Virus record (IMG/VR): IMGVR_UViG_3300025655_000002
Span: 5,508 to 69,507 of that record
Length of the DNA stretch: 64,000 bases
DNA from: a virus
Reading direction: 5' to 3' (one strand)
Each line of letters begins with the position of its first letter. Positions within the stretch are counted from its first letter, which is position 1. Below, piece by piece: positions 13,365-63,332 of the stretch. A program made the translations under genes and the position numbers. A model generated the notes under the pieces. The model made no database searches. It saw only the letters and a program-made list of their open reading frames with translations, and was not told where the DNA came from.

Positions 13365-16300
13365 CTATCTAGAATTTCTTTCCGACCTCCTAGAACTTCT
13401 TCCTCCACCTCTTTTGCTTCCGTCCAAATCCTCTCCAGTTATAATCTTCCATAGTTTATCATTTTTATCTGGATATTTAGCAGCCTCTTCCTCTGTTGTC
13501 CAGTTAAATACTGCATCAAAGAAATCTTTTCCATCTTCATCTTTAGCGGCCTTTTCTAAATTAGACCACTGCTTCAAGAAAGAGTCAGCAGGTATTAGTT
13601 TTATTATTTTATTTTTTTCAGAATCACTTAATTCATCCCATGGCTTACCTATAGCCATAACCTCAGCAGCTGTAGATATAGAGCCACTAATGTTGCCTAT
13701 TTCTTGAAGCAAAGGAATGGTATTTTTCCAGTCCTCACCTCTTAAGTTGTTGATTGCGAAGTTGGTAACTATACCAGTCATACCAAAACCATTAAGTATA
13801 GATTGAATATTATCTGCAATTGTAGCATAAACGCCTTTCTTAGCTTCCTCTTCATCGTCAAAACCTTTAAATAATTCTTTTATCATCCCATTAGTAACCA
13901 TAGCGAAACCAACGTTAGCCACAGAGTAATAAGCTATATCATAAACAGCTTGAACCTTCTCTTCGTTAGATAACTCTGATTTAGATGTTAAAACTCTTAC
14001 GGCTGCCTTTAATTTATTTGTTGTTTGTGTTTGAGAGGTTGTAAACGCACTAAACAACCTGAATACTCTATCTCTTTGCATGTGAGATGTTTCTTGAGCT
14101 CTTGTAGATTGCTGTGCAGACTCTGATTCGTTAACAAATTTCTCATAAGCTATATCTATAGCCTCTTCATGGCTTTTTCCTTTTGCTTTTTCCTTTCTAT
14201 AGACAGCTAAAGCTAACGGAGCCCCGCCTAAAAGAACACCACCTATATCCCCAACGGTTATTGGAGACATGGCTATCCTTGTGAATGTTCTAGCGAATCT
14301 TTTACTTAAAGACCCTTTAGATGAATTTAAAAGTCTATTTACCTCTATATCAAAGCTTCTTCCTTGCATTCTTCTTTTAACGTATGGAGAAGTCCATATT
14401 TCAGCAAATACTTTTGCGTCATTTCTTGTTATAGGAACAAACCCTGTCAGCCACTCGTGAAATCTGACTCCGCTAGCTGTAGAGAAGTGAGTGAATGAAG
14501 TAAGCTGCTTCGGTATTGAGGCTAATTTAAAAGCAAGAGACCCAAATATCTTGTATGTCATCATTTGATTAACAATAAAGTCAAATGAATTTGATTTTGC
14601 AGCCCTTGGGTCTTGGCCAGTTATAACTACTCCTAAATGGTCTCTAAGTTTATTAAAGTTGACAGTACCTATTTTCTTAACTATTTCTGCAGAGTTTACT
14701 GAGTTAAATATAGCGTTAACCTTTTCTCCAACTGGAACAAACTGTCTCGCTCTCTCCATTGTTGAAATGTAATTCATGGCAACCTCGTGAGCTCCTATAG
14801 ACGTGTTAACTCCTAAGTTATGATTAACTCTTTGTTTTAGATTTCCTGCTACTGCGTCTTTATAATTTAGATTGCCATTATCATCCATTAATTGACCATT
14901 ATCTATTATCTCTCTATTGGTCGTCTCAGCAAACCTTGGGTAATAAACTCCCTCTGGAAACTTAGTGTTAGTTAAATGTATGTATGTTGGCTCGTAATCA
15001 TCTTTCATTGATGGGTAAAAATCCTCTATTAAATAATCAGAATACTCTTTGAGCTCTTTATTTCCTTCAATGTATTCAAATAATTGTTTTATCCCGTCCT
15101 TATCGAAGCCAGACTTTAATAATTTCTCGTAACCTTCTGTGATAGGTATTCCATTTGAATCAGTCTTAGATTCCTTATTACCAGAACGAGCTATATTATA
15201 AAGGTTAACAAGCGTGCTATTTGAAGGAGGCTCAAGGTAATCTTCTATTGGATTTATATCTGCATTCTTTCCTAGAATGTTTAACGCAATAGATTTTTTT
15301 CCAAATATTTTTTTAATGTCAGAAAGGTATTTGTTTTTCTTTCTATACACCTCTTCTTCCATGTTAAAGTCAGCAGTATTTACACTTTCCTTTAAATCAG
15401 TCATCTCTTCACGTAGTGCTTTACTGCCTTTAAATACAGGAATCATATTATTCCATAAGTTGTTCTTTGCTGTGAATGGATTTAGCTTTTGATAAAGAGC
15501 TCTCAATGGACTCTCGTTTACTTTAGCTACAGACATTTTAGGTGTGCTATATATGTCTATATCCTTGAAGTCACTATCATGGTCTTTTAAATATTCTTCC
15601 AATGCCGATTTGCTAGATATAAGCTGGCCATCAAGAACAACTGATTTATTTTGCTTTTCTAAATACTCTACAACTTCTTCTTTAGAATTAGCTTTTTTTG
15701 ATGGTTTAGAGCCTTCCTTTAGAGCTAAAAATGTCTTTGCTGATTTTCTTCTTTTTATAGAATTAGTAAACCTTTTATTAACAGCAACCTCTTGTCTTCC
15801 AGCTTTAAGAATGTCTTTAATTAAAGAATGAGTCTGTTCTAATTCCATCAACGACATTCCATCCAACATGCTAAGGTCAAAATTAGATATAAAGTCCTGA
15901 ACCTCAATAGGAACCTTTCCTTTCCATTTTTTACCAACCTTTCTTGCTATCGATTTTTTGTTAGTAATTAATCTTGCTATTCTGTCTTTCGTTTTTTCTG
16001 ATTCTCTTTTAGATACTTTTTCAGCTATTTTATCTATCCTGTCTAAAATAACGCTTGGGTCAGCCCCATTTTCTAGCTCTGTTATTAGCGGAGTCCATTC
16101 ATGTTTATATTGCTCTGCTTTAGGTATAACGCCTCTAGCATAAGCCGAGAAACTATCAACATCTTTTCCATCTCCATCAAGATTAGGTCTTTCAGTTGTT
16201 TTTGGAGGTTTTGGTGGCTCTTCTATTTTCCCTTCTTTTGCATCACTTTGTTTTAACTTATCAGATAAAACAACCCTATCTGGCATTACAAAGTATTCTG

Positions 16301-49249: not shown

Positions 49250-49406
49250 GTTAGCAACAATACTAATAATCGCTAAATCCACCAATCGGCTTACTGTCAA
49301 ATCCTGTTTTATCATCTTCATCTTTCCAATGTTGATGTAAATTAAATTCGTAATCATCTACTTTTGATGTCTGTTCAAATATTTGGTTGCAAGTACTGTT
49401 GCTAAC
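49250..49406 (-). mobile_element. Cassette-like unit bounded by GTTAGC...GCTAAC inverted repeats
   Basis: gttagcaacagtact / agtattgttgctaac (14/15) on the minus strand. Confidence 0.6.
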
Positions 49407-49499
49407 ACCCAATAAACCCAATAAAATAGTTCGTGCTTTCGTTTCAGTAATTGTGCCTTGTTTAAGGTCTTCTGCTATTTTGATAATTTTGTCTTTCAT
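49263..49499 (-). CDS. Chimeric small protein: hairpin-encoded N-terminus plus cassette-encoded C-terminus
   Basis: First 33 aa paralogous to ORF 59212-59451; similarity stops at GVS (GGT GTT AGC). Confidence 0.65.
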   Translation of the reverse strand: MKDKIIKIAEDLKQGTITETKARTILLGLLGVSNSTCNQIFEQTSKVDDYEFNLHQHWKDEDDKTGFDSKPIGGFSDY

Positions 49500-49530
49500 A
49501 ATCTTTTACTGCGTTTATTTGTAGCCGTTA
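49401..49530 (-). repeat. attC-like hairpin element containing ATG and a constant N-terminal coding segment (copy 1)
   Basis: TAAC...aataaacgcagtaaaa...ttttattgggtttatt-gggt-GTTAGC; homologous to 59180-59310. Confidence 0.7.
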
Positions 49531-49860
49531 ATTTTGTATTAAAAATCACATATATACCTCTCGGCTCGATTAATAATATCACAAATGTACCACTTTTAGT
49601 TTGATTAATGCAAGCTTTTTTGTAATTATTTTATAGCTTCGTCATGCATTAAGTGTGTAACCCTTGTGTTTTAAAGGGTTTTTAATCAGAAAAAAATTTC
49701 AAAAATTTTTGGGAGTGGGGTTATGGTGGGTGTGTCGGGGGTGCAATCTCGAAGGGAAAACGGTTCTCAACATACCAGTGGGGTAAATTCTTGCAAGCCT
49801 AATATTTTCAAGCGTTTTGTCTATGTTCTATTTATGATACAAAATGAAACTAACTATCTT

Positions 49861-51350: not shown

Positions 51351-51983
51351 ATGAGAAAACAATATAAATACCCGTTCAGAAATAAAAAACTGAGCAGAAC
51401 GCAAGTAAAAAACAATATACTTGCAGTGCTAAAAGAGGCTGACAATGAGAGTTATATTAATGGCTCGATATGGTACGATGTAGCCAATGGAATAGCCAAA
51501 AAGTTAATCGTAGCCTCTGAAACTGAAATAAACTTGGCTCAAGCTGTAGGGTTAATAGCTGCTTTGAGTCCTTTAAAAAGTTGGGAACAAAATATACAAT
51601 TGGCTTATGAATTTGTTATTGGTAAAAGAAGTGGGCACACTAAACTTTGTGTTGGTAAAGCAAATGATATACTAGCTTTAAATAACCCAAGTGTTGATGA
51701 GGTGGTAGAAGTTTTGAGCGGGCAAAAAACAGTGAACTTTTTCTTAAACATATACTATCCTAATGAAGATGCAGCAATAACAATAGATAGACACGCAGTA
51801 GGAATAGCTTTGATAGGTACTAAGAAAATAAAACTAACTGAAGAGGAGTGTAAACCTACTAAGGCACAGTTTGAGTTCTTGGTGCACTGTTACAAATGGG
51901 CTGCTTCTGAGTTAAGTTTGTCTGCAGTACAGTTACAAGCTATTACTTGGGAGCACTTTAGAAATATAAAAGTAAAAAGATAA
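51351..51983 (+). CDS. Conserved phage protein, DUF7178-like (HhH/glycosylase-like)
   Basis: G..WY..A, AALSP..SW..N, G.K..NF..NI, TIDRHA and QA.TW motifs. Confidence 0.6.
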   Translation: MRKQYKYPFRNKKLSRTQVKNNILAVLKEADNESYINGSIWYDVANGIAKKLIVASETEINLAQAVGLIAALSPLKSWEQNIQLAYEFVIGKRSGHTKLCVGKANDILALNNPSVDEVVEVLSGQKTVNFFLNIYYPNEDAAITIDRHAVGIALIGTKKIKLTEEECKPTKAQFEFLVHCYKWAASELSLSAVQLQAITWEHFRNIKVKR

Positions 51984-52020: not shown

Positions 52021-52245
52021 ATGAGTAGATTTAAAATAAAAACAACATCAAGTGGTAGATGTGATGTAACACTAACGATATTTAATGAACATGGCACTGT
52101 CATTGGGCAAAAGGCATCTACATACGATATTAAACCGACTATTAAAGAATTATTAGACTATGCTAAAACATACAAAAAGGATGGTGCTAAAACAGTTAGA
52201 ATAACAACCACACCAAGCTTCAGTGTAAAAACATATAGATTATAA
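52021..52245 (+). CDS. Hypothetical early protein
   Basis: ORF preceded by the leader repeat. Confidence 0.6.
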   Translation: MSRFKIKTTSSGRCDVTLTIFNEHGTVIGQKASTYDIKPTIKELLDYAKTYKKDGAKTVRITTTPSFSVKTYRL

Positions 52246-52250
52246 TTGTA

Positions 52251-52369
52251 TATAACGTTGCTGTATATGACACGTAGCATCACAGACCTTTGAGATACGA
52301 AATAAATTAATAATTAAACACATAGTTTTAAAATAGCCTAACAGCTATGTGTTATATACTTTGTTAGGC
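52251..52369 (+). repeat. attC-like hairpin element
   Basis: TATAAC-N6-gtatatgacacgtagc...gctatgtgttatatac-N3-GTTAGGC. Confidence 0.65.
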
Positions 52370-52563
52370 ACAGTTAATTATGAAAAGATTTAATTTGAAA
52401 TACAACGTAGGAAAAGTAAAGTATTTAGTTTCTTACCATGACGGAGAAAAGAAACATAAAGACGGAAGCGACTTCTTTGATATTGCCTGCTTCAAGAATA
52501 AAGTAAAACTAAATGCTTTCACGAATGAATTACTAAAACAAGGGTACTCTAATTGTGCCTAAC
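52363..52563 (+). mobile_element. Cassette-like unit carrying ORF 52380-52562
   Basis: gttaggcacagtt / aattgtgcctaac inverted ends (12/13); ORF stop lies inside GCCTAAC. Confidence 0.65.
52380..52562 (+). CDS. Small conserved phage protein
   Basis: NVGKVKY.VSYHDG.K.HKDGS.FFDI..FKNK. Confidence 0.65.
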   Translation: MKRFNLKYNVGKVKYLVSYHDGEKKHKDGSDFFDIACFKNKVKLNAFTNELLKQGYSNCA

Positions 52564-52604: not shown

Positions 52605-52790
52605 ATGAAGACTTATAAATACCCATTCAGAAATAAAAAACTGAGTAGAACGCAAGTAAAAAACAATATACTTGCAGTACTAAAAGAGGCTGATAATGAT
52701 AGCTTTATTTTTGGGCAACAATGGTACACAGAAGCTAATAATATAGCTAAAAAGTTGAAAGTTAATACAATACCGAATAGTCAAATTTAA
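52605..52790 (+). pseudogene. Truncated duplicate of the 5' end of ORF 51351-51983
   Basis: About 50 codons largely identical, then runs into the CAATACCGAA repeat and stops. Confidence 0.7.
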
Positions 52791-58470: not shown

Positions 58471-58508
58471 AAATCGCTGTTCGGTATTGTCTAATTAAAA
58501 TATTATTG

Positions 58509-58628
58509 TATATTTGCCTCAGAGACAGTACTTACATCAATCAAGTACATAACGAACAAAAATAAAGCCGTTTCCTAGTTATCTTCTTTGTAAGTAACTG
58601 TCTCTCAAGGGGACGGCTATTTTTTTTT
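58509..58628 (+). promoter_or_regulatory. Promoter plus attenuator-like leader / small RNA with terminator
   Basis: TATATTTG at 58509; stem 58521-58536/58589-58605 interleaved with terminator 58566-58576/58608-58618 and T-tract. Confidence 0.55.
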
Positions 58629-58962
58629 ACATACAAGGCAAACGAATGAGTTCATATTTCCCCACTCACTATCATAAAAAGGGATGTAAAAATGTTTGTA
58701 ACGAGTAACAGTTAGTCGAAAATACATGCAATGCTTCAAGCCAGCAACATGTGACCTACAAGATTAATGAAGACTATGATAACAAAACGTCAGTTTGTTT
58801 ACTGTTCAACTGACTACCTGTAATAGGTTAGGGGGTTATCGCTGAAGCTCTGATTAAATTATAATATTGTTTTTATATTGTAATTTTTGAAATCCCTGTT
58901 TTGTAGGGGAATAAGGCGAGGTATATAAAATTAAAACAAATGTTAAGTTAGCTATACACATT

Positions 58963-59185
58963 GTTAGCAACTGGGCGATTTTAAAAACGAAAGATATGTT
59001 TAACGCAAACAAAAAAATACCATCAAGAGGGTATAAAGTACCAAGCGGATTTGGTTGGGATTATAGAGCAACTGCAATAGCTTATCTGGAAAGAGAAGGG
59101 TTGTTTACTATTGGACACGCAAACGGAAACTACTATACTCTAACTCAACTTAAAAATGCGAGGGTTGGGTAGCCTTGTTGCTAAC
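58963..59185 (+). mobile_element. Cassette-like unit carrying a 58-aa ORF
   Basis: gttagcaactgggc / gccttgttgctaac inverted ends (12/14). Confidence 0.6.
58996..59172 (+). CDS. Small hypothetical protein (58 aa, MFNANKKIP...; not in ORF track)
   Basis: ATG 58996 to TAG 59172; fills the cassette. Confidence 0.55.
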   Translation: MFNANKKIPSRGYKVPSGFGWDYRATAIAYLEREGLFTIGHANGNYYTLTQLKNARVG

Positions 59186-59310
59186 GTTTTGAATAAACAC
59201 AGTAAAATATTATGAAAACAGAACTTAACAAAATAGCAAAAGACCTTGAACAAGGCACGATAACCGACCAAGAAGCACGAACACTTTTATTGGGTTTATT
59301 GGGTGTTAGC
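59180..59310 (+). repeat. attC-like hairpin element containing ATG and constant N-terminus (copy 2)
   Basis: GCTAAC-N6-aataaacacagtaaaa...ttttattgggtttatt-gggt-GTTAGC. Confidence 0.7.
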
Positions 59311-59451
59311 AAACGTTTTTTTTGGTTAAAACCTGATGGAACTATTTCTAATATGTGGGATGAAGAAGACCATTTGAAATACTTAACCGATAAAGATATT
59401 GAAAATGCCCAAAAAGATGGTTGGCAGTGCATTCAGATAAATGTTTGCTAA
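59212..59451 (+). CDS. Chimeric small protein: hairpin-encoded N-terminus plus cassette-encoded C-terminus
   Basis: N-terminus paralogous to 49263-49499 up to GVS; stop lies inside GCTAAC. Confidence 0.65.
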   Translation: MKTELNKIAKDLEQGTITDQEARTLLLGLLGVSKRFFWLKPDGTISNMWDEEDHLKYLTDKDIENAQKDGWQCIQINVC

Positions 59452-59452
59452 C
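59305..59452 (+). mobile_element. Cassette-like unit
   Basis: gttagcaaacgttt / aaatgtttgctaac inverted ends (13/14). Confidence 0.65.
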
Positions 59453-59496
59453 ATCGGCATAAAAACCGTTTTAATGGTTTTTATAAAGTGTTAAAG
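59447..59496 (+). repeat. Minimal attC-like hairpin
   Basis: GCTAAC-atcggc-ataaaaaccgtt-tt-aatggtttttat-aaagt-GTTAAAG; first ~30 bp repeated inverted at 49226-49256. Confidence 0.65.
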
Positions 59497-59817
59497 CACG
59501 TTTTAATGTGCTTATTTTAAAGTATATAAAATTAAAACAAGCATAGATTATGGGGATGAGATAATATGTGCTTTGAATCAGAAAAACGCAGGCAGAAAGA
59601 CAAAGAAAAAAGGTTTAATATGACTAAACAAAACTAACATCATGATACAGATATATTTTATAATGGCAGCATTAGTGACTTCGCTATTCTTTTTACATGA
59701 TAGAAACTGTCACAAGAAATGGTACAACTACTACGAAGCAACTGTATTTATAGTAGCTTCTTTTATAGTATTATTTACTCCATACATAAATTACTTCATT
59801 ATTAAGTTAGGATTACA

Positions 59818-60327: not shown

Positions 60328-60375
60328 ACGATAATTTAAGATATCATTTAAATAAGCAATATAAAATTAAACAAT

Positions 60376-60870
60376 ATGAATACAGCGCAAAGAAAATTCT
60401 TAATAGAAAGAATACAACAAAAAACTAAAGATAAAATTAAAGTATTGCAAAATAATAAGATGGATTTACCCTCTATTGATAATTATATTTTTAAAGCAAT
60501 ATTGACAGATAATTTGGAATTACAACCTAGCGAAGTAATTTTATCTGCTTTAAAAGCTAAAGCAAAAAGGGCAAAAGCTGGTGAAAACTGGTTATCCGAA
60601 GATAGAATTGGAGTGTATAAATCAACCACAATTAGAATTGACATTAAAGAATTAATAAAACTTCCTAATGATTATAATGAAGAACTTGAAAGAGTAATAG
60701 AACACAACGATAATATAAATAAAGAAATAGAAACATTGAAAATTCAATTAGATACAATAGAAATTCGTGTCCAATTAGCAAGTGATAAAACATTAAGAAA
60801 CCTTGTTAATGAGGTTGATGATATGGGTAGTTTGTCGATTATAGACACTAAGTTGAAGTTGCTGCCTTAA
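60376..60870 (+). CDS. Hypothetical coiled-coil protein
   Basis: ORF. Confidence 0.6.
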   Translation: MNTAQRKFLIERIQQKTKDKIKVLQNNKMDLPSIDNYIFKAILTDNLELQPSEVILSALKAKAKRAKAGENWLSEDRIGVYKSTTIRIDIKELIKLPNDYNEELERVIEHNDNINKEIETLKIQLDTIEIRVQLASDKTLRNLVNEVDDMGSLSIIDTKLKLLP

Positions 60871-62080: not shown

Positions 62081-62476
62081 ATGGAAGATGAAAAAAAGAT
62101 ATTAGTTATCGGAGAAAATATACCTACCAATTCGGCATTGAGTAAACATAACTCAATAGTAAAAGGAAAGATAAACGCTGAACTATTTAAAGAATCATTC
62201 CTTAAAGATGCAGAACTAGCAATGAAAAAGCTAGAAGAACACAACGAAATAGAATCTAAAAGAAAGAATAACAAAGTATTCTACATACAGGGATTTGCAG
62301 TAATAGGAATTAGCAGATTAAAAGCAAGCAAAAAACTAAGAAGTATAATGGGGAGAATTATACTTAATCCAGATGTTGAATTTGAACAACTAAAAGATAC
62401 CATGATAGCTATTCGTAATAACGCAATGCCGAATCAGCCTGAAGATTCAGCGAATAGTGTGGGAATCTCAAAATAA
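62081..62476 (+). CDS. Hypothetical protein
   Basis: ORF containing two motif copies. Confidence 0.55.
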   Translation: MEDEKKILVIGENIPTNSALSKHNSIVKGKINAELFKESFLKDAELAMKKLEEHNEIESKRKNNKVFYIQGFAVIGISRLKASKKLRSIMGRIILNPDVEFEQLKDTMIAIRNNAMPNQPEDSANSVGISK

Positions 62477-62532
62477 TTGTTGTATGTTTGCTGACGGTTT
62501 GGGTATGTTGCGGATTTTGAGGAACGAAAAAT

Positions 62533-62778
62533 ATGAAATATAGGTGGTGTTACCCACCGTTAAACTTAGAAAATATGTACAAAGCATTTCAAAACAAAAA
62601 GTATTACTTAGCATTTAACACATTTCCAAAGACTGCTAAGAACGTAAGTAAAGTATATTTATCTGGAATTAGAAATTGGACAGCAGATGATATGTATAAC
62701 TATTCTATTGTGATAAATAGATTTAGAATAATCTTTGGAATAAAACGAATAACTCACGATTGTTGTAATGGTGGGTAA
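62533..62778 (+). CDS. Cassette-borne hypothetical protein (alternative start 62575)
   Basis: Stop lies inside GGGTAAC. Confidence 0.55.
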   Translation: MKYRWCYPPLNLENMYKAFQNKKYYLAFNTFPKTAKNVSKVYLSGIRNWTADDMYNYSIVINRFRIIFGIKRITHDCCNGG

Positions 62779-62779
62779 C
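62549..62779 (+). mobile_element. Cassette-like unit
   Basis: gttacccaccgtt / aatggtgggtaac inverted ends (12/13), followed by attC-like hairpin 62776-62824. Confidence 0.6.
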
Positions 62780-62894
62780 ACCAAGATATGAAACGTCTTT
62801 AGATGTTTTTATATCGGCTGTTAGAAGCCGTTTTAATGGATTATATTCTTACTAAACCCTACGTGAAATTGATTATTAATTAAATCATAACCTA

Positions 62895-63332
62895 ATGAGT
62901 AACATGAATGAAGAAGAGATATGGATTCCTGTAAATGGCTGCCCCGACAGAGAGGTTAGTAGTTTTGGCAGATTTAGAAGAAAGCTTAAAAACGGAAGAT
63001 ATAAATTTGTTAACCCATACTTTAGCAAAAGAAATAAAGAATGCATGATTAAGCTCCCAGATGGTCAGGCTTCAGCTAAAAGACTTGTTGCTGAGCACTT
63101 TGTTGAGAATCCAAGTGAAGGTATATATGTTAAAAGCAGAGACGGAAATCCTTTAAATATAAGACCAGAAAACTTATACTGGACAAACTATTCTGGAGGA
63201 GGTTATACTTCTGAATTAAAAATAGAAAATGACAATATTCCATTAAGCGTAACCATTGGAGCTTGGACTGGCTCAAAAGAAAGAGCTTCATATAAAGTAA
63301 TGAATAAACTTGATAATTATTATGGAAACTAA
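62895..63332 (+). CDS. NUMOD4/HNH homing-endonuclease-like protein (probably degenerate)
   Basis: EEIWIPV.G....EVSSFGR (NUMOD4); RLVAEHF..NP...DGNP.N....NL.W, lacking the catalytic His. Confidence 0.7.
   Translation: MSNMNEEEIWIPVNGCPDREVSSFGRFRRKLKNGRYKFVNPYFSKRNKECMIKLPDGQASAKRLVAEHFVENPSEGIYVKSRDGNPLNIRPENLYWTNYSGGGYTSELKIENDNIPLSVTIGAWTGSKERASYKVMNKLDNYYGN

Follow-up and report, generated by a model that had tools for sequence, protein, structure and literature searches.

A probable array of integron-like mobile gene cassettes in a phage genome

We analysed a 64,000-nucleotide (nt) stretch of DNA from a Bacteroidota-type phage, hereafter the window, which comprises bases 5508-69507 of the 69.5-kb IMG/VR virus record IMGVR_UViG_3300025655_000002, a record with 127-bp terminal repeats. 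Its resemblance to public phage records is faint, amounting to a 60-nt match with Cellulophaga phages. The subject of this work is a short array at 58963-59520, in which segments enclosed by inverted repeats that begin with GTT and end with AAC alternate with hairpin sites resembling the attC sites of integrons. Integrons are the textbook bacterial route for collecting and reshuffling genes. The elements of the array had been listed in a first-pass annotation, and every one of them was found where it had been placed. The features of the locus are as follows.

58921-58939, + strand: first copy of a 19-nt direct repeat, GTATATAAAATTAAAACAA, directly 5' of the array, which is also the weak 5' half of the first site.
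58963-59185, + strand: cassette 1, with a 5' arm at 58963-58976 and a 3' arm at 59172-59185 that ends in AAC.
59186-59304, + strand: N-module site, composed of a 6-nt spacer, an L-type arm, the ATG at 59212, a loop of ~77 nt, the second arm and the 4-nt spacer GGGT.
59212-59451, + strand: gene A, of 79 amino acids (aa), which starts between the 16-nt arms of the N-module site, reads through GTTAGC and has its TAA inside the 3' arm (TAAC).
59305-59452, + strand: cassette 2 body, with its own arms at 59305-59318 and 59439-59452 (14/15 complementary).
59186-59452, + strand: putative mobile unit (site plus open reading frame, ORF), with the AACs at 59183-59185 and 59450-59452 as its limits.
59453-59489, + strand: short hairpin site, with the spacer ATCGGC, a stem formed by 59459-59470 and 59473-59484, the loop CGTTTTAATG and the spacer AAAGT.
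59490-59519, + strand: terminal small hairpin (59490-59513), which starts GTTAAAGCAC and carries the loop motif CGTTTTAATG, followed by a T-rich tail.
59522-59540, + strand: second copy of the 19-nt direct repeat, found by repeat search to be an exact copy of 58921-58939.

The arms of cassette 1 (GTTAGCAACTGGGC and GCCTTGTTGCTAAC) are complementary at 12 of 14 positions and enclose an ORF of 58 aa (58996-59172) with a start codon of its own. The protein has 11 metagenome homologues, all of them with their own start, and no DNA relatives of the cassette were found in viral contigs. The site that follows has 16-nt arms (59192-59207 and 59285-59300; 14/16 complementary) with a leader, an ATG and ~30 codons between them, and the proposal that this site is translated was supported: gene A starts there. 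Gene A consists of an N-terminal helix-loop-helix module (the N-module, codons 1-31) joined in frame to the cassette 2 body; its AlphaFold2 model (mean predicted local distance difference test score, pLDDT, 85) has helices at 2-13 and 19-29, with a confident helix-loop-helix over residues 2-29. Neither Pfam nor PHROGs gave a match for gene A, for its paralogue gene B (see below) or for the cassette 1 ORF, and a search of Rfam at E values up to 1 returned one sub-threshold antisense-RNA match and otherwise nothing relevant. The 12-nt stem of the short hairpin site is complementary at 11 positions, and the spacer and the beginning of this stem recur after the paralogous gene. The terminal hairpin is an arm pair without a body and is terminator-like; similar bodyless pairs are found in locus L015 and after 62812. 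The two copies of GTATATAAAATTAAAACAA, 601 nt apart, bracket the entire array, and a third copy (85% identical, 60359-60378) lies directly before the ATG at 60376. This repeat may be a phage promoter or leader, or else the footprint of an array insertion.

We compared the arms with what chance would give. The core 8-mer GTTAGCAA is present in 8 copies in the window against 2.89 expected, a number that 0 of 100 shuffles reached, and six of the eight copies make three inverted pairs. A strict arm signature is found in 5 pairs in the genome, with a mean of 0.405 and a maximum of 3 in 200 shuffles (none reaching 5), so the paired GTT...AAC arms pointed out in the annotation hold up against shuffled sequence. 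The loop motif CGTTTTAATG occurs in 4 copies where 0.14 are expected. A generic scan of the whole genome for sites with stems of at least 11 gave 26 sites, against 12-25 in shuffles, and is not discriminating alone. In the cultured Polaribacter phage P12002L, whose arms are only ~8 bp, the strict signature is not enriched (4 pairs, mean 1.43 in shuffles, with 5 of 100 reaching 4).

Sites with the order AAC, hairpin, GTT are found in the window at 59186-59304, 59453-59489, ~52256-52362 and 62780-62812, and ORFs enclosed by inverted GTT...AAC repeats lie at three additional places. The same design recurs elsewhere: 26 of 46 cassette 3' ends are followed by AAC, 4-7 nt, an imperfect stem of 9-21 bp, 1-6 nt and GTT, with a total length of 51-139 nt, and the stems between cassettes are often of the form GTATATG...TATATAC. 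The integron-like architecture claimed for the array, with GTT/AAC cores and stop codons inside TAAC, is supported, and so is the observation that the arms (10-14 bp) exceed the 7-nt core of integrons. In other long sites, too (L023, L081, L085, L096 and L101), an ATG opens a frame that runs on through the GTT arm; a translation start inside the site is therefore not peculiar to the N-module. In phage P12002L, the intergenic regions around the methyltransferase genes match the window in their arms (ATTGTTGCTAAC, ATTGTGCCTAAC), in their GTATATG...TATATAC stems and in their CGTTTTAATG loops. An identical 68-nt element starting AACAACGG occurs twice in P12002L (L105, 29172-29239 and 37198-37265), after two different cassette 3' arms, and after one such arm in its sibling phage P12002S.

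The N-module defines a family. Gene A has 209 relatives among metagenome proteins at E <=0.01; ten are full-length, and the remaining ones match only the N-terminal 29-54% of the query and then continue for 15 to 80 unrelated residues. At the DNA level we fetched N-modules with a 25-nt conserved leader pattern, which yielded 10 viral contigs, 79 metagenome stretches and 3 genome contigs (a Tenacibaculum chromosome, an Ekhidna contig and a 10-kb contig labelled Gammaproteobacteria). From the viral and metagenome contigs we took 60 distinct N-module genes, which have 38 different 5' arms. In 45 of the 60, the 5' arm pairs (at least 6 of 7 inner positions) with a stretch that ends in AAC at or just after the gene's own stop codon, while pairing across genes was seen in 233 of 3430 combinations. 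The first bases of a cassette are thus complementary to the inverse core of the same cassette, as the attC rule requires.

The positions of the arms behave differently from one another. We examined 36 unique good arm pairs, chosen beforehand as having 6 or more Watson-Crick pairs out of 8. In 35-36 of these 36, positions 5-9 form Watson-Crick pairs, with 3-4 different bases per position, and GTT occupies positions 1-3 in 34-36 of them. A purine (R) stands at position 4 in all 36 and at position 5 in 30. Position 6 is C or T in 30, and a pyrimidine (Y) occurs at position 7 in just 5, which gives GTTAGCR as the core instead of GTTRRRY. At position 11 the T of the 3' arm is kept in 33 of 36 pairs, mostly facing G, and the AAC, which our search required, is retained even opposite GCT or GTC in the 5' arm. 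The stop codon is the TAA of TAAC in 22 of the 36.

Within the N-module, mean column identity is 0.857, 0.886 and 0.848 at codon positions 1, 2 and 3, so that synonymous sites are as conserved as the others in this sample, which was selected by exact leader match and is biased to close relatives. Both N-module arms are its most conserved parts, and TTTTATTGGGTTTATT is invariant in 14/14. The sequence upstream is nearly always ...TAAC plus 6 nt, with a clear arm-enclosed ORF before the N-module in 21 of 54 cases. There is usually one N-module per phage locus, a second match being present at 6 of 90 loci, some of them partial or weak. Compared with public phage records, N-module DNA gave a single 41-nt match, at chance level. 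Since the N-module stands before many unrelated bodies, joining at the GTT junction must have occurred at some time. Two fusions of other kinds were seen. In a prophage-like region of Tenacibaculum (L106, 5051-5587), the N-module and a body known from phage contigs begin a 178-aa protein whose frame runs past the usual cassette end. In L016 (~10366, minus strand), the body shared by L018 and L039 is preceded by only the last 18 nt of the N-module and continues, in frame, an upstream ORF that is different and longer; the breakpoint here falls within the site.

The extent of the units was read from alignments between contigs that hold both N-module and body. These alignments begin at the AAC before the site and end at the AAC of the 3' arm, and the downstream site is never included. 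The clearest case is a block of 292-305 nt shared by L042, L080 and L089, which is 99.0-100% identical (292 nt identical in direct alignment), runs from (T)AAC to AAC(AA) and lies in unrelated flanks that share only ~4-6 nt with the block. L052/L053 and L091 are likewise 98.7% identical over 300 nt, L072 and L099 98.7% over 386 nt, and the breaks between L030 and L031 fall on the same two AACs. The two cultured Polaribacter phages, P12002L and P12002S, are 99.8-100% identical in their shared blocks and differ at two places. One is an insertion of ~1.1 kb with three small genes, bounded by AAC plus a repeated 14 nt starting with AAC, over which the boundary is ambiguous. The other is a replacement of ~2 kb by different methyltransferase-containing cassettes, whose right boundary is exactly AAC, followed by 2125 identical bases.

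Since the blocks run from one AAC to the next, the moving unit is the site plus the ORF. As judged from these comparisons, exchange between genomes occurs at the AAC triplets of the coding strand, and the site therefore travels 5' of its own gene and can bring with it a leader, a start codon and, in the case of the N-module, the first 31 codons. Cassette swaps between relatives had been anticipated with breakpoints between G and TT; swaps that look site-specific were found, but their breakpoints lie at the coding-strand AAC. The suggestion that small chimeric proteins are built by recombination between neighbouring cassettes was not borne out, as N-module and body move as one unit in every recent transfer that we could resolve. 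Besides the many unrelated bodies behind one N-module, there are blocks of ~97% identity that hold only the N-module and end at GTTAG, but no recent resolved transfer was cut there, and these blocks are weak evidence for use of the junction because the module is so conserved.

For the unit in the window (59186-59452), mobility as site plus ORF would follow from the same boundaries, and contig-level hints point to it. In run X10 both flanks of the unit were present at 100% identity with a different body before TAAC. In run X11 the cassette 2 body was present with 1 mismatch while no other part of the surrounding 2.8 kb was matched, although at contig level uncovered parts are not evidence of absence. 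A single joint from 59312 to 59445, considered as an excision product, was discarded as the paralogous unit B mapping onto the locus.

We then asked which strand carries the structure. Recombination of a canonical attC site uses its bottom strand, where the cut AAC is found and which exceeds the top strand in stability and in G:T mispairs (PMC5027507). A symmetric search for mispairs in the hairpin stems found, on the coding strand, 51 G.T/T.G against 25 A.C/C.A, which supports the annotation's remark on G-T mispairs. Folding favours the coding strand as well: at 20 of 24 hairpin sites (Wilcoxon p 0.002), at 43 of 44 N-module sites (which are related sequences) and at 4 of 4 window sites. The attC rule that the recombined strand is the more stable and G:T-richer one holds here if the coding strand is the recombined one. 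The position of the crossover at AAC, together with the mispairs, indicates therefore that the coding strand plays the part of the canonical bottom strand, and that the cassette is a canonical one reversed, with its site 5' of the gene.

Taken together, these results make it probable that the locus is a short array of mobile gene cassettes, part of an integron-like system that is widespread in Bacteroidota phages and is also present in Flavobacteriaceae chromosomes. Structure and AAC-to-AAC mobility are, on comparative evidence, well supported. The integron-like reading owes much to P12002L, a published phage cluster of attC sites without an integrase (CALIN; PMC9892861), which carries the same type of site. 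We read this as an integron-like cassette system that differs from known integrons in its coding-strand crossover, in having the site 5' of the gene and in a partly translated site. For the mechanism, we infer a folded coding strand and a tyrosine recombinase. On the coding strand, a unit opens with AAC, putatively cut between AA and C. After 4-7 nt of spacer comes an imperfect hairpin (the L box), and after another 1-6 nt follow the 5' arm that starts with GTT, the ORF body and a 3' arm that ends in AAC, with a putative cut again between AA and C. The two arms of a unit are complementary over ~10 nt and 2-3 pairs beyond; in a circle closed from that unit they would make up the R-box stem of an attC-like site. 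Recombination of the folded single-stranded DNA would fall to an Xer/IntI-type tyrosine recombinase, which the host or, in certain phages, the phage itself would provide, and the cargo would be small early or accessory proteins, including DNA methyltransferases in the Polaribacter phages. RNA, which the annotation had admitted as the acting substrate, is not required for anything seen.

The comparison with known systems shows both kinship and departure. Qi et al. (2023) screened 10,705 phage genomes and reported 17 CALINs, one of them with two methyltransferase genes in P12002L, a phage whose CALIN was called with the curated attC covariance model (IntegronFinder / HattCI + Infernal), and IntI1 recombined P12002L_attC2, a predicted site which may not be one of those compared here (PMC9892861). 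The literature, searched by text and not by sequence, gave no further report of attC sites in phage genomes and none on a translated site or a reversed polarity. The system described here shares with integron cassettes and CALINs the GTT/AAC cores, the crossover in the AAC triplet, the stops in TAAC, the complementarity of a cassette's own ends, the imperfect hairpin with unpaired spacers (51-139 nt for the whole site) and the conservation of structure over sequence, and as in a CALIN there is no integrase beside the array. The sites agree in size, L box, unpaired central spacer and variable terminal loop with known attC sites, of which examples of 57-70 and 133 bp are given in PMC5027507. It differs from CALINs in that the crossover is on the coding strand, the site lies 5' of the gene and many ORFs start within it; the R-box stem is of 10-14 bp with a conserved unpaired T, not 7 bp; and the core is GTTAGCR, where canonical attC cores are RYYYAAC and GTTRRRY (PMC5027507). 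Further, the N-module type of site is conserved at the nucleotide level and translated, and the hosts belong to a phylum with rare integrons. The sedentary chromosomal integrons of Vibrio, with their 133-bp repeat (PMC5027507), also alternate a long conserved folded repeat (here ~135 nt) with unrelated cargo, but here the repeat carries a leader, an ATG and 31 codons that are read into the cargo, and a phage locus usually has a single such unit, with units scattered across many unrelated phage genomes.

The enzyme was searched for in the genome and in relatives. The absence of an integrase reported for the window holds for the window itself, but the genome encodes, just outside it (G000:C1:728-1297), a 189-aa Xer-like tyrosine recombinase that comprises only the catalytic domain. 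Its gene is on the same strand as the array, ~1.8 kb past the last recognisable cassette and across the terminal repeat. Against the IntI model it scores 38 bits (cut-off 265). Resolvase, RVT_1 and Y1_Tnp, which represent serine recombinases, reverse transcriptases (RT) and Y1 (HUH) transposases, have no match in the genome. The 189-aa protein has only 11 close homologues in a large protein set; as a single query it found no close relative in viral contigs, and a profile search gave 6 loci at 24-27% identity. A different candidate is present in the chromosome of a Tenacibaculum metagenome-assembled genome (L120, 9735-18766), where a 383-aa Xer/IntI-like recombinase and a helicase IV-like gene are followed by sites and arm pairs of the phage design. 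Two of these sites lie 3-8 kb from the recombinase gene, and one arm pair there encloses three ORFs. The 383-aa protein scores 213.5 bits with the XerA/integron-integrase model, just below the cut-off of 220, and is only 22% identical to the 189-aa protein. Since no recombinase is common to the carriers and no IntI was found, a tyrosine recombinase is put forward only as the putative cutting enzyme.

Several observations weigh against the integron-like reading. Of the 46 cassette ends, 20 have no recognisable downstream site, and 15 of the 60 N-module genes lack good arms. At 21 of 24 sites the coding strand has the longer of its unpaired spacers on the AAC arm, which by the extrahelical-base criterion of PMC5027507 would make the coding strand the canonical top strand, and in the Tenacibaculum chromosome the two sites of the same design that we examined lie, with respect to the genes, in the polarity opposite to that of the phage sites. 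Folding is also uneven. Of four sites in the window, the short site 59453-59489 (z of -2.3 on the + strand and -1.9 on the - strand) and the short site after 62549-62779 (-4.9) fold better than shuffles, but the long N-module hairpin (-0.44) and the site upstream of 52363 (-0.25), each taken as a single sequence, do not. Among five related virus records, two of which are at least 90% complete, none has a PF00589 match and none has the 189-aa recombinase, and in the two N-module-bearing Bacteroidota genomes no IntI above cut-off was found. The assembled (Logan) contigs of runs X8-X11 showed neither an excised circle nor an empty site or other recombination product. Finally, the sequence beside the AAC is semi-conserved, and recombination by short homology may have acted there.

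This last point leads to the alternative that fares best, one we consider unlikely: that these are regulatory cassettes like the promoter-early stem-loops (PeSLs) of T4-type phages, in which terminator or promoter hairpin modules allow gene shuffling by homologous or microhomology recombination, without a site-specific recombinase. In T4-type phages, for which PeSL shuffling and mini-circles are documented (PMC2839356), small accessory genes of hyperplastic regions, with repeated hairpin modules on either side, are also gained, lost or replaced among close relatives. It would agree with the lack of a recombinase conserved among carriers, with the ambiguity of the P12002L/P12002S insertion across its repeated 14 nt and with the sequence after AAC (GTT/GGT... 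then GTATATG), which could give 10-15 nt of homology; in the window, the terminal hairpins are terminator-like and the 19-nt direct repeat flanks the array. But PeSLs are conserved in sequence, recombine by homology and have neither covarying arms that enclose an ORF nor a GTT/AAC core, while the sites here vary in sequence. A PeSL-like process leaves unexplained why each ORF body has its own covarying arms with structure rather than sequence conserved, why AAC is constant while the partner GTT changes, how a 99.0-100% identical unit comes to lie in flanks that share ~4-6 nt, and why IntI1 acts on P12002L_attC2 (PMC9892861), with the reservation already made about that site.

Another view is that the arms and hairpins act in the sense transcript, as RNA folds for mRNA stability, processing or the control of translation, and are linked to gene boundaries only by gene-wise inheritance; in our opinion it is very unlikely. 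The mispairs on the sense strand are mostly G-U compatible, the sense strand folds better and the stems are co-linear with the genes, all as this explanation would have it. However, the T at position 11 is kept whatever lies opposite, as a conserved letter and not as a pair, and the arms enclose the body wherever translation starts, inside the site for gene A and after the arm for cassette 1. A stem that spans a whole ORF would be opened by ribosomes. The precise AAC-to-AAC transfer among unrelated contexts is, moreover, a DNA event.

Even less probable is that we are dealing with ordinary integron cassettes of canonical polarity, captured from a host integron by IntI, each consisting of an ORF and then its own attC, with crossover between G and TT on the ORF strand. 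The GTT/AAC cores, the TAAC stops, the 51-139 nt sites and the report of P12002L as a CALIN (PMC9892861) are all features of such cassettes. This reading is already contradicted by the extent of the blocks: the site upstream of the ORF belongs to them, they end with the AAC of the 3' arm, and the site beyond it differs at once; the canonical order is thus absent. Many ORFs begin inside the upstream site and the G.T mispairs are on the coding strand, which do not fit either. Complete integrons are reported to be rare in Bacteroidetes (PMC9024848), and no IntI above cut-off was found, either as the tyrosine recombinase of this genome or in the two Bacteroidota genomes. Least credible are invertible segments, in which the inverted repeats around each body would be the targets of a small FimB/FimE-like tyrosine invertase (such as the catalytic-domain-only protein of this genome) that switches the C-terminus of a protein, as the bodies found beside the N-module are co-oriented in 235 cases and inverted in 0, reverse frames close after 8-34 codons and that recombinase is absent from 5 of 5 related records.

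Other candidates were rejected during the analysis. An inversion switch was ruled out by those orientation counts; a diversity-generating retroelement, a retron or an HUH element, by the lack of RT and Y1 transposase in the genome; and translational bypass or an intron was dropped on reading the sequence, as the bodies are translated in frame.

A stronger version of the integron-like reading can be put forward only tentatively. It may be that Bacteroidota phages and their hosts run a cassette exchange of their own, independent of IntI, in which folded coding-strand sites are cut between the AA and the C of AAC by Xer-like recombinases (of the host 383-aa type or the phage 189-aa type), the site doubles as the 5' part of the gene, and the N-module site is translated as a conserved helix-loop-helix and fused in frame to dozens of unrelated bodies. 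If this were true, the N-module fusions would give a natural view of cassette birth.

Reports of attC clusters without an integrase in phages are few, and here the same design organises small accessory genes in many Bacteroidota phages from many kinds of sample, and also distinguishes two cultured sibling phages. P12002L and P12002S are therefore a tractable model for cassette exchange in lytic phages. The system may be one way in which anti-restriction genes and other genes for host takeover spread, and the N-module family has a bearing on how new ORFs acquire a recombination site, which is an open question.

The further units in the window are the following.

49250-49535, - strand: paralogous unit B, with AAC, spacer, N-module and an unrelated body with arms at 49393-49406 and 49250-49263; its ORF (gene B, 49263-49499) encodes 78 aa.
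52245-52563, + strand: site (~52256-52362) and cassette 52363-52563, with the arms GTTAGGCACAGT and ATTGTGCCTAAC and an ORF at 52380-52562.
62549-62840, + strand: cassette 62549-62779, with the arms GTTACCCACCGT and ATGGTGGGTAAC, followed by a short hairpin site (62780-62812) and a bodyless arm hairpin.

Gene B shares with gene A the leader, the first 33 codons and the 32 nt after TAAC, whereas the middle is unrelated and has its own arms. The arm pair GTTAGGCACAGT / ATTGTGCCTAAC is found around unrelated ORFs in the window, L023, L030 and L101, with near variants in L016 and L099; the arms are therefore a shared framework and not the property of one gene. Near the second unit, a 61-aa ORF (52605-52790) is a truncated copy of the start of a 210-aa ORF (51351-51983), and the two copies bracket a 74-aa ORF and the cassette 52363-52563, as if a cassette had been inserted with partial duplication of a gene. 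Upstream of the third unit, at 62474-62500, ATGTTTGCTGAC comes after the end of a 131-aa ORF (62476); it resembles the 3' arm of cassette 2, with GAC in place of AAC, and is perhaps a fixed (dead) cassette end. Between the last cassette and the gene of the small tyrosine recombinase lie two ORFs that look, from sequence, like HNH/NUMOD-type endonucleases (62895-63332 and G000:C1:118-744). One further pair with the strict signature, GTTAACCTTTTCT / TATAAAGGTTAAC, lies at 14715-15209, its arms 495 nt apart, and may be due to chance. Finally, the ~490 nt before the array (58471-58960) have no ORF and contain a long inverted repeat (~58520-58610) and a T-run; the part 58671-58954 is 100% identical in run X10, a run that otherwise hardly contains this phage, and the segment is possibly a mobile or regulatory non-coding element.

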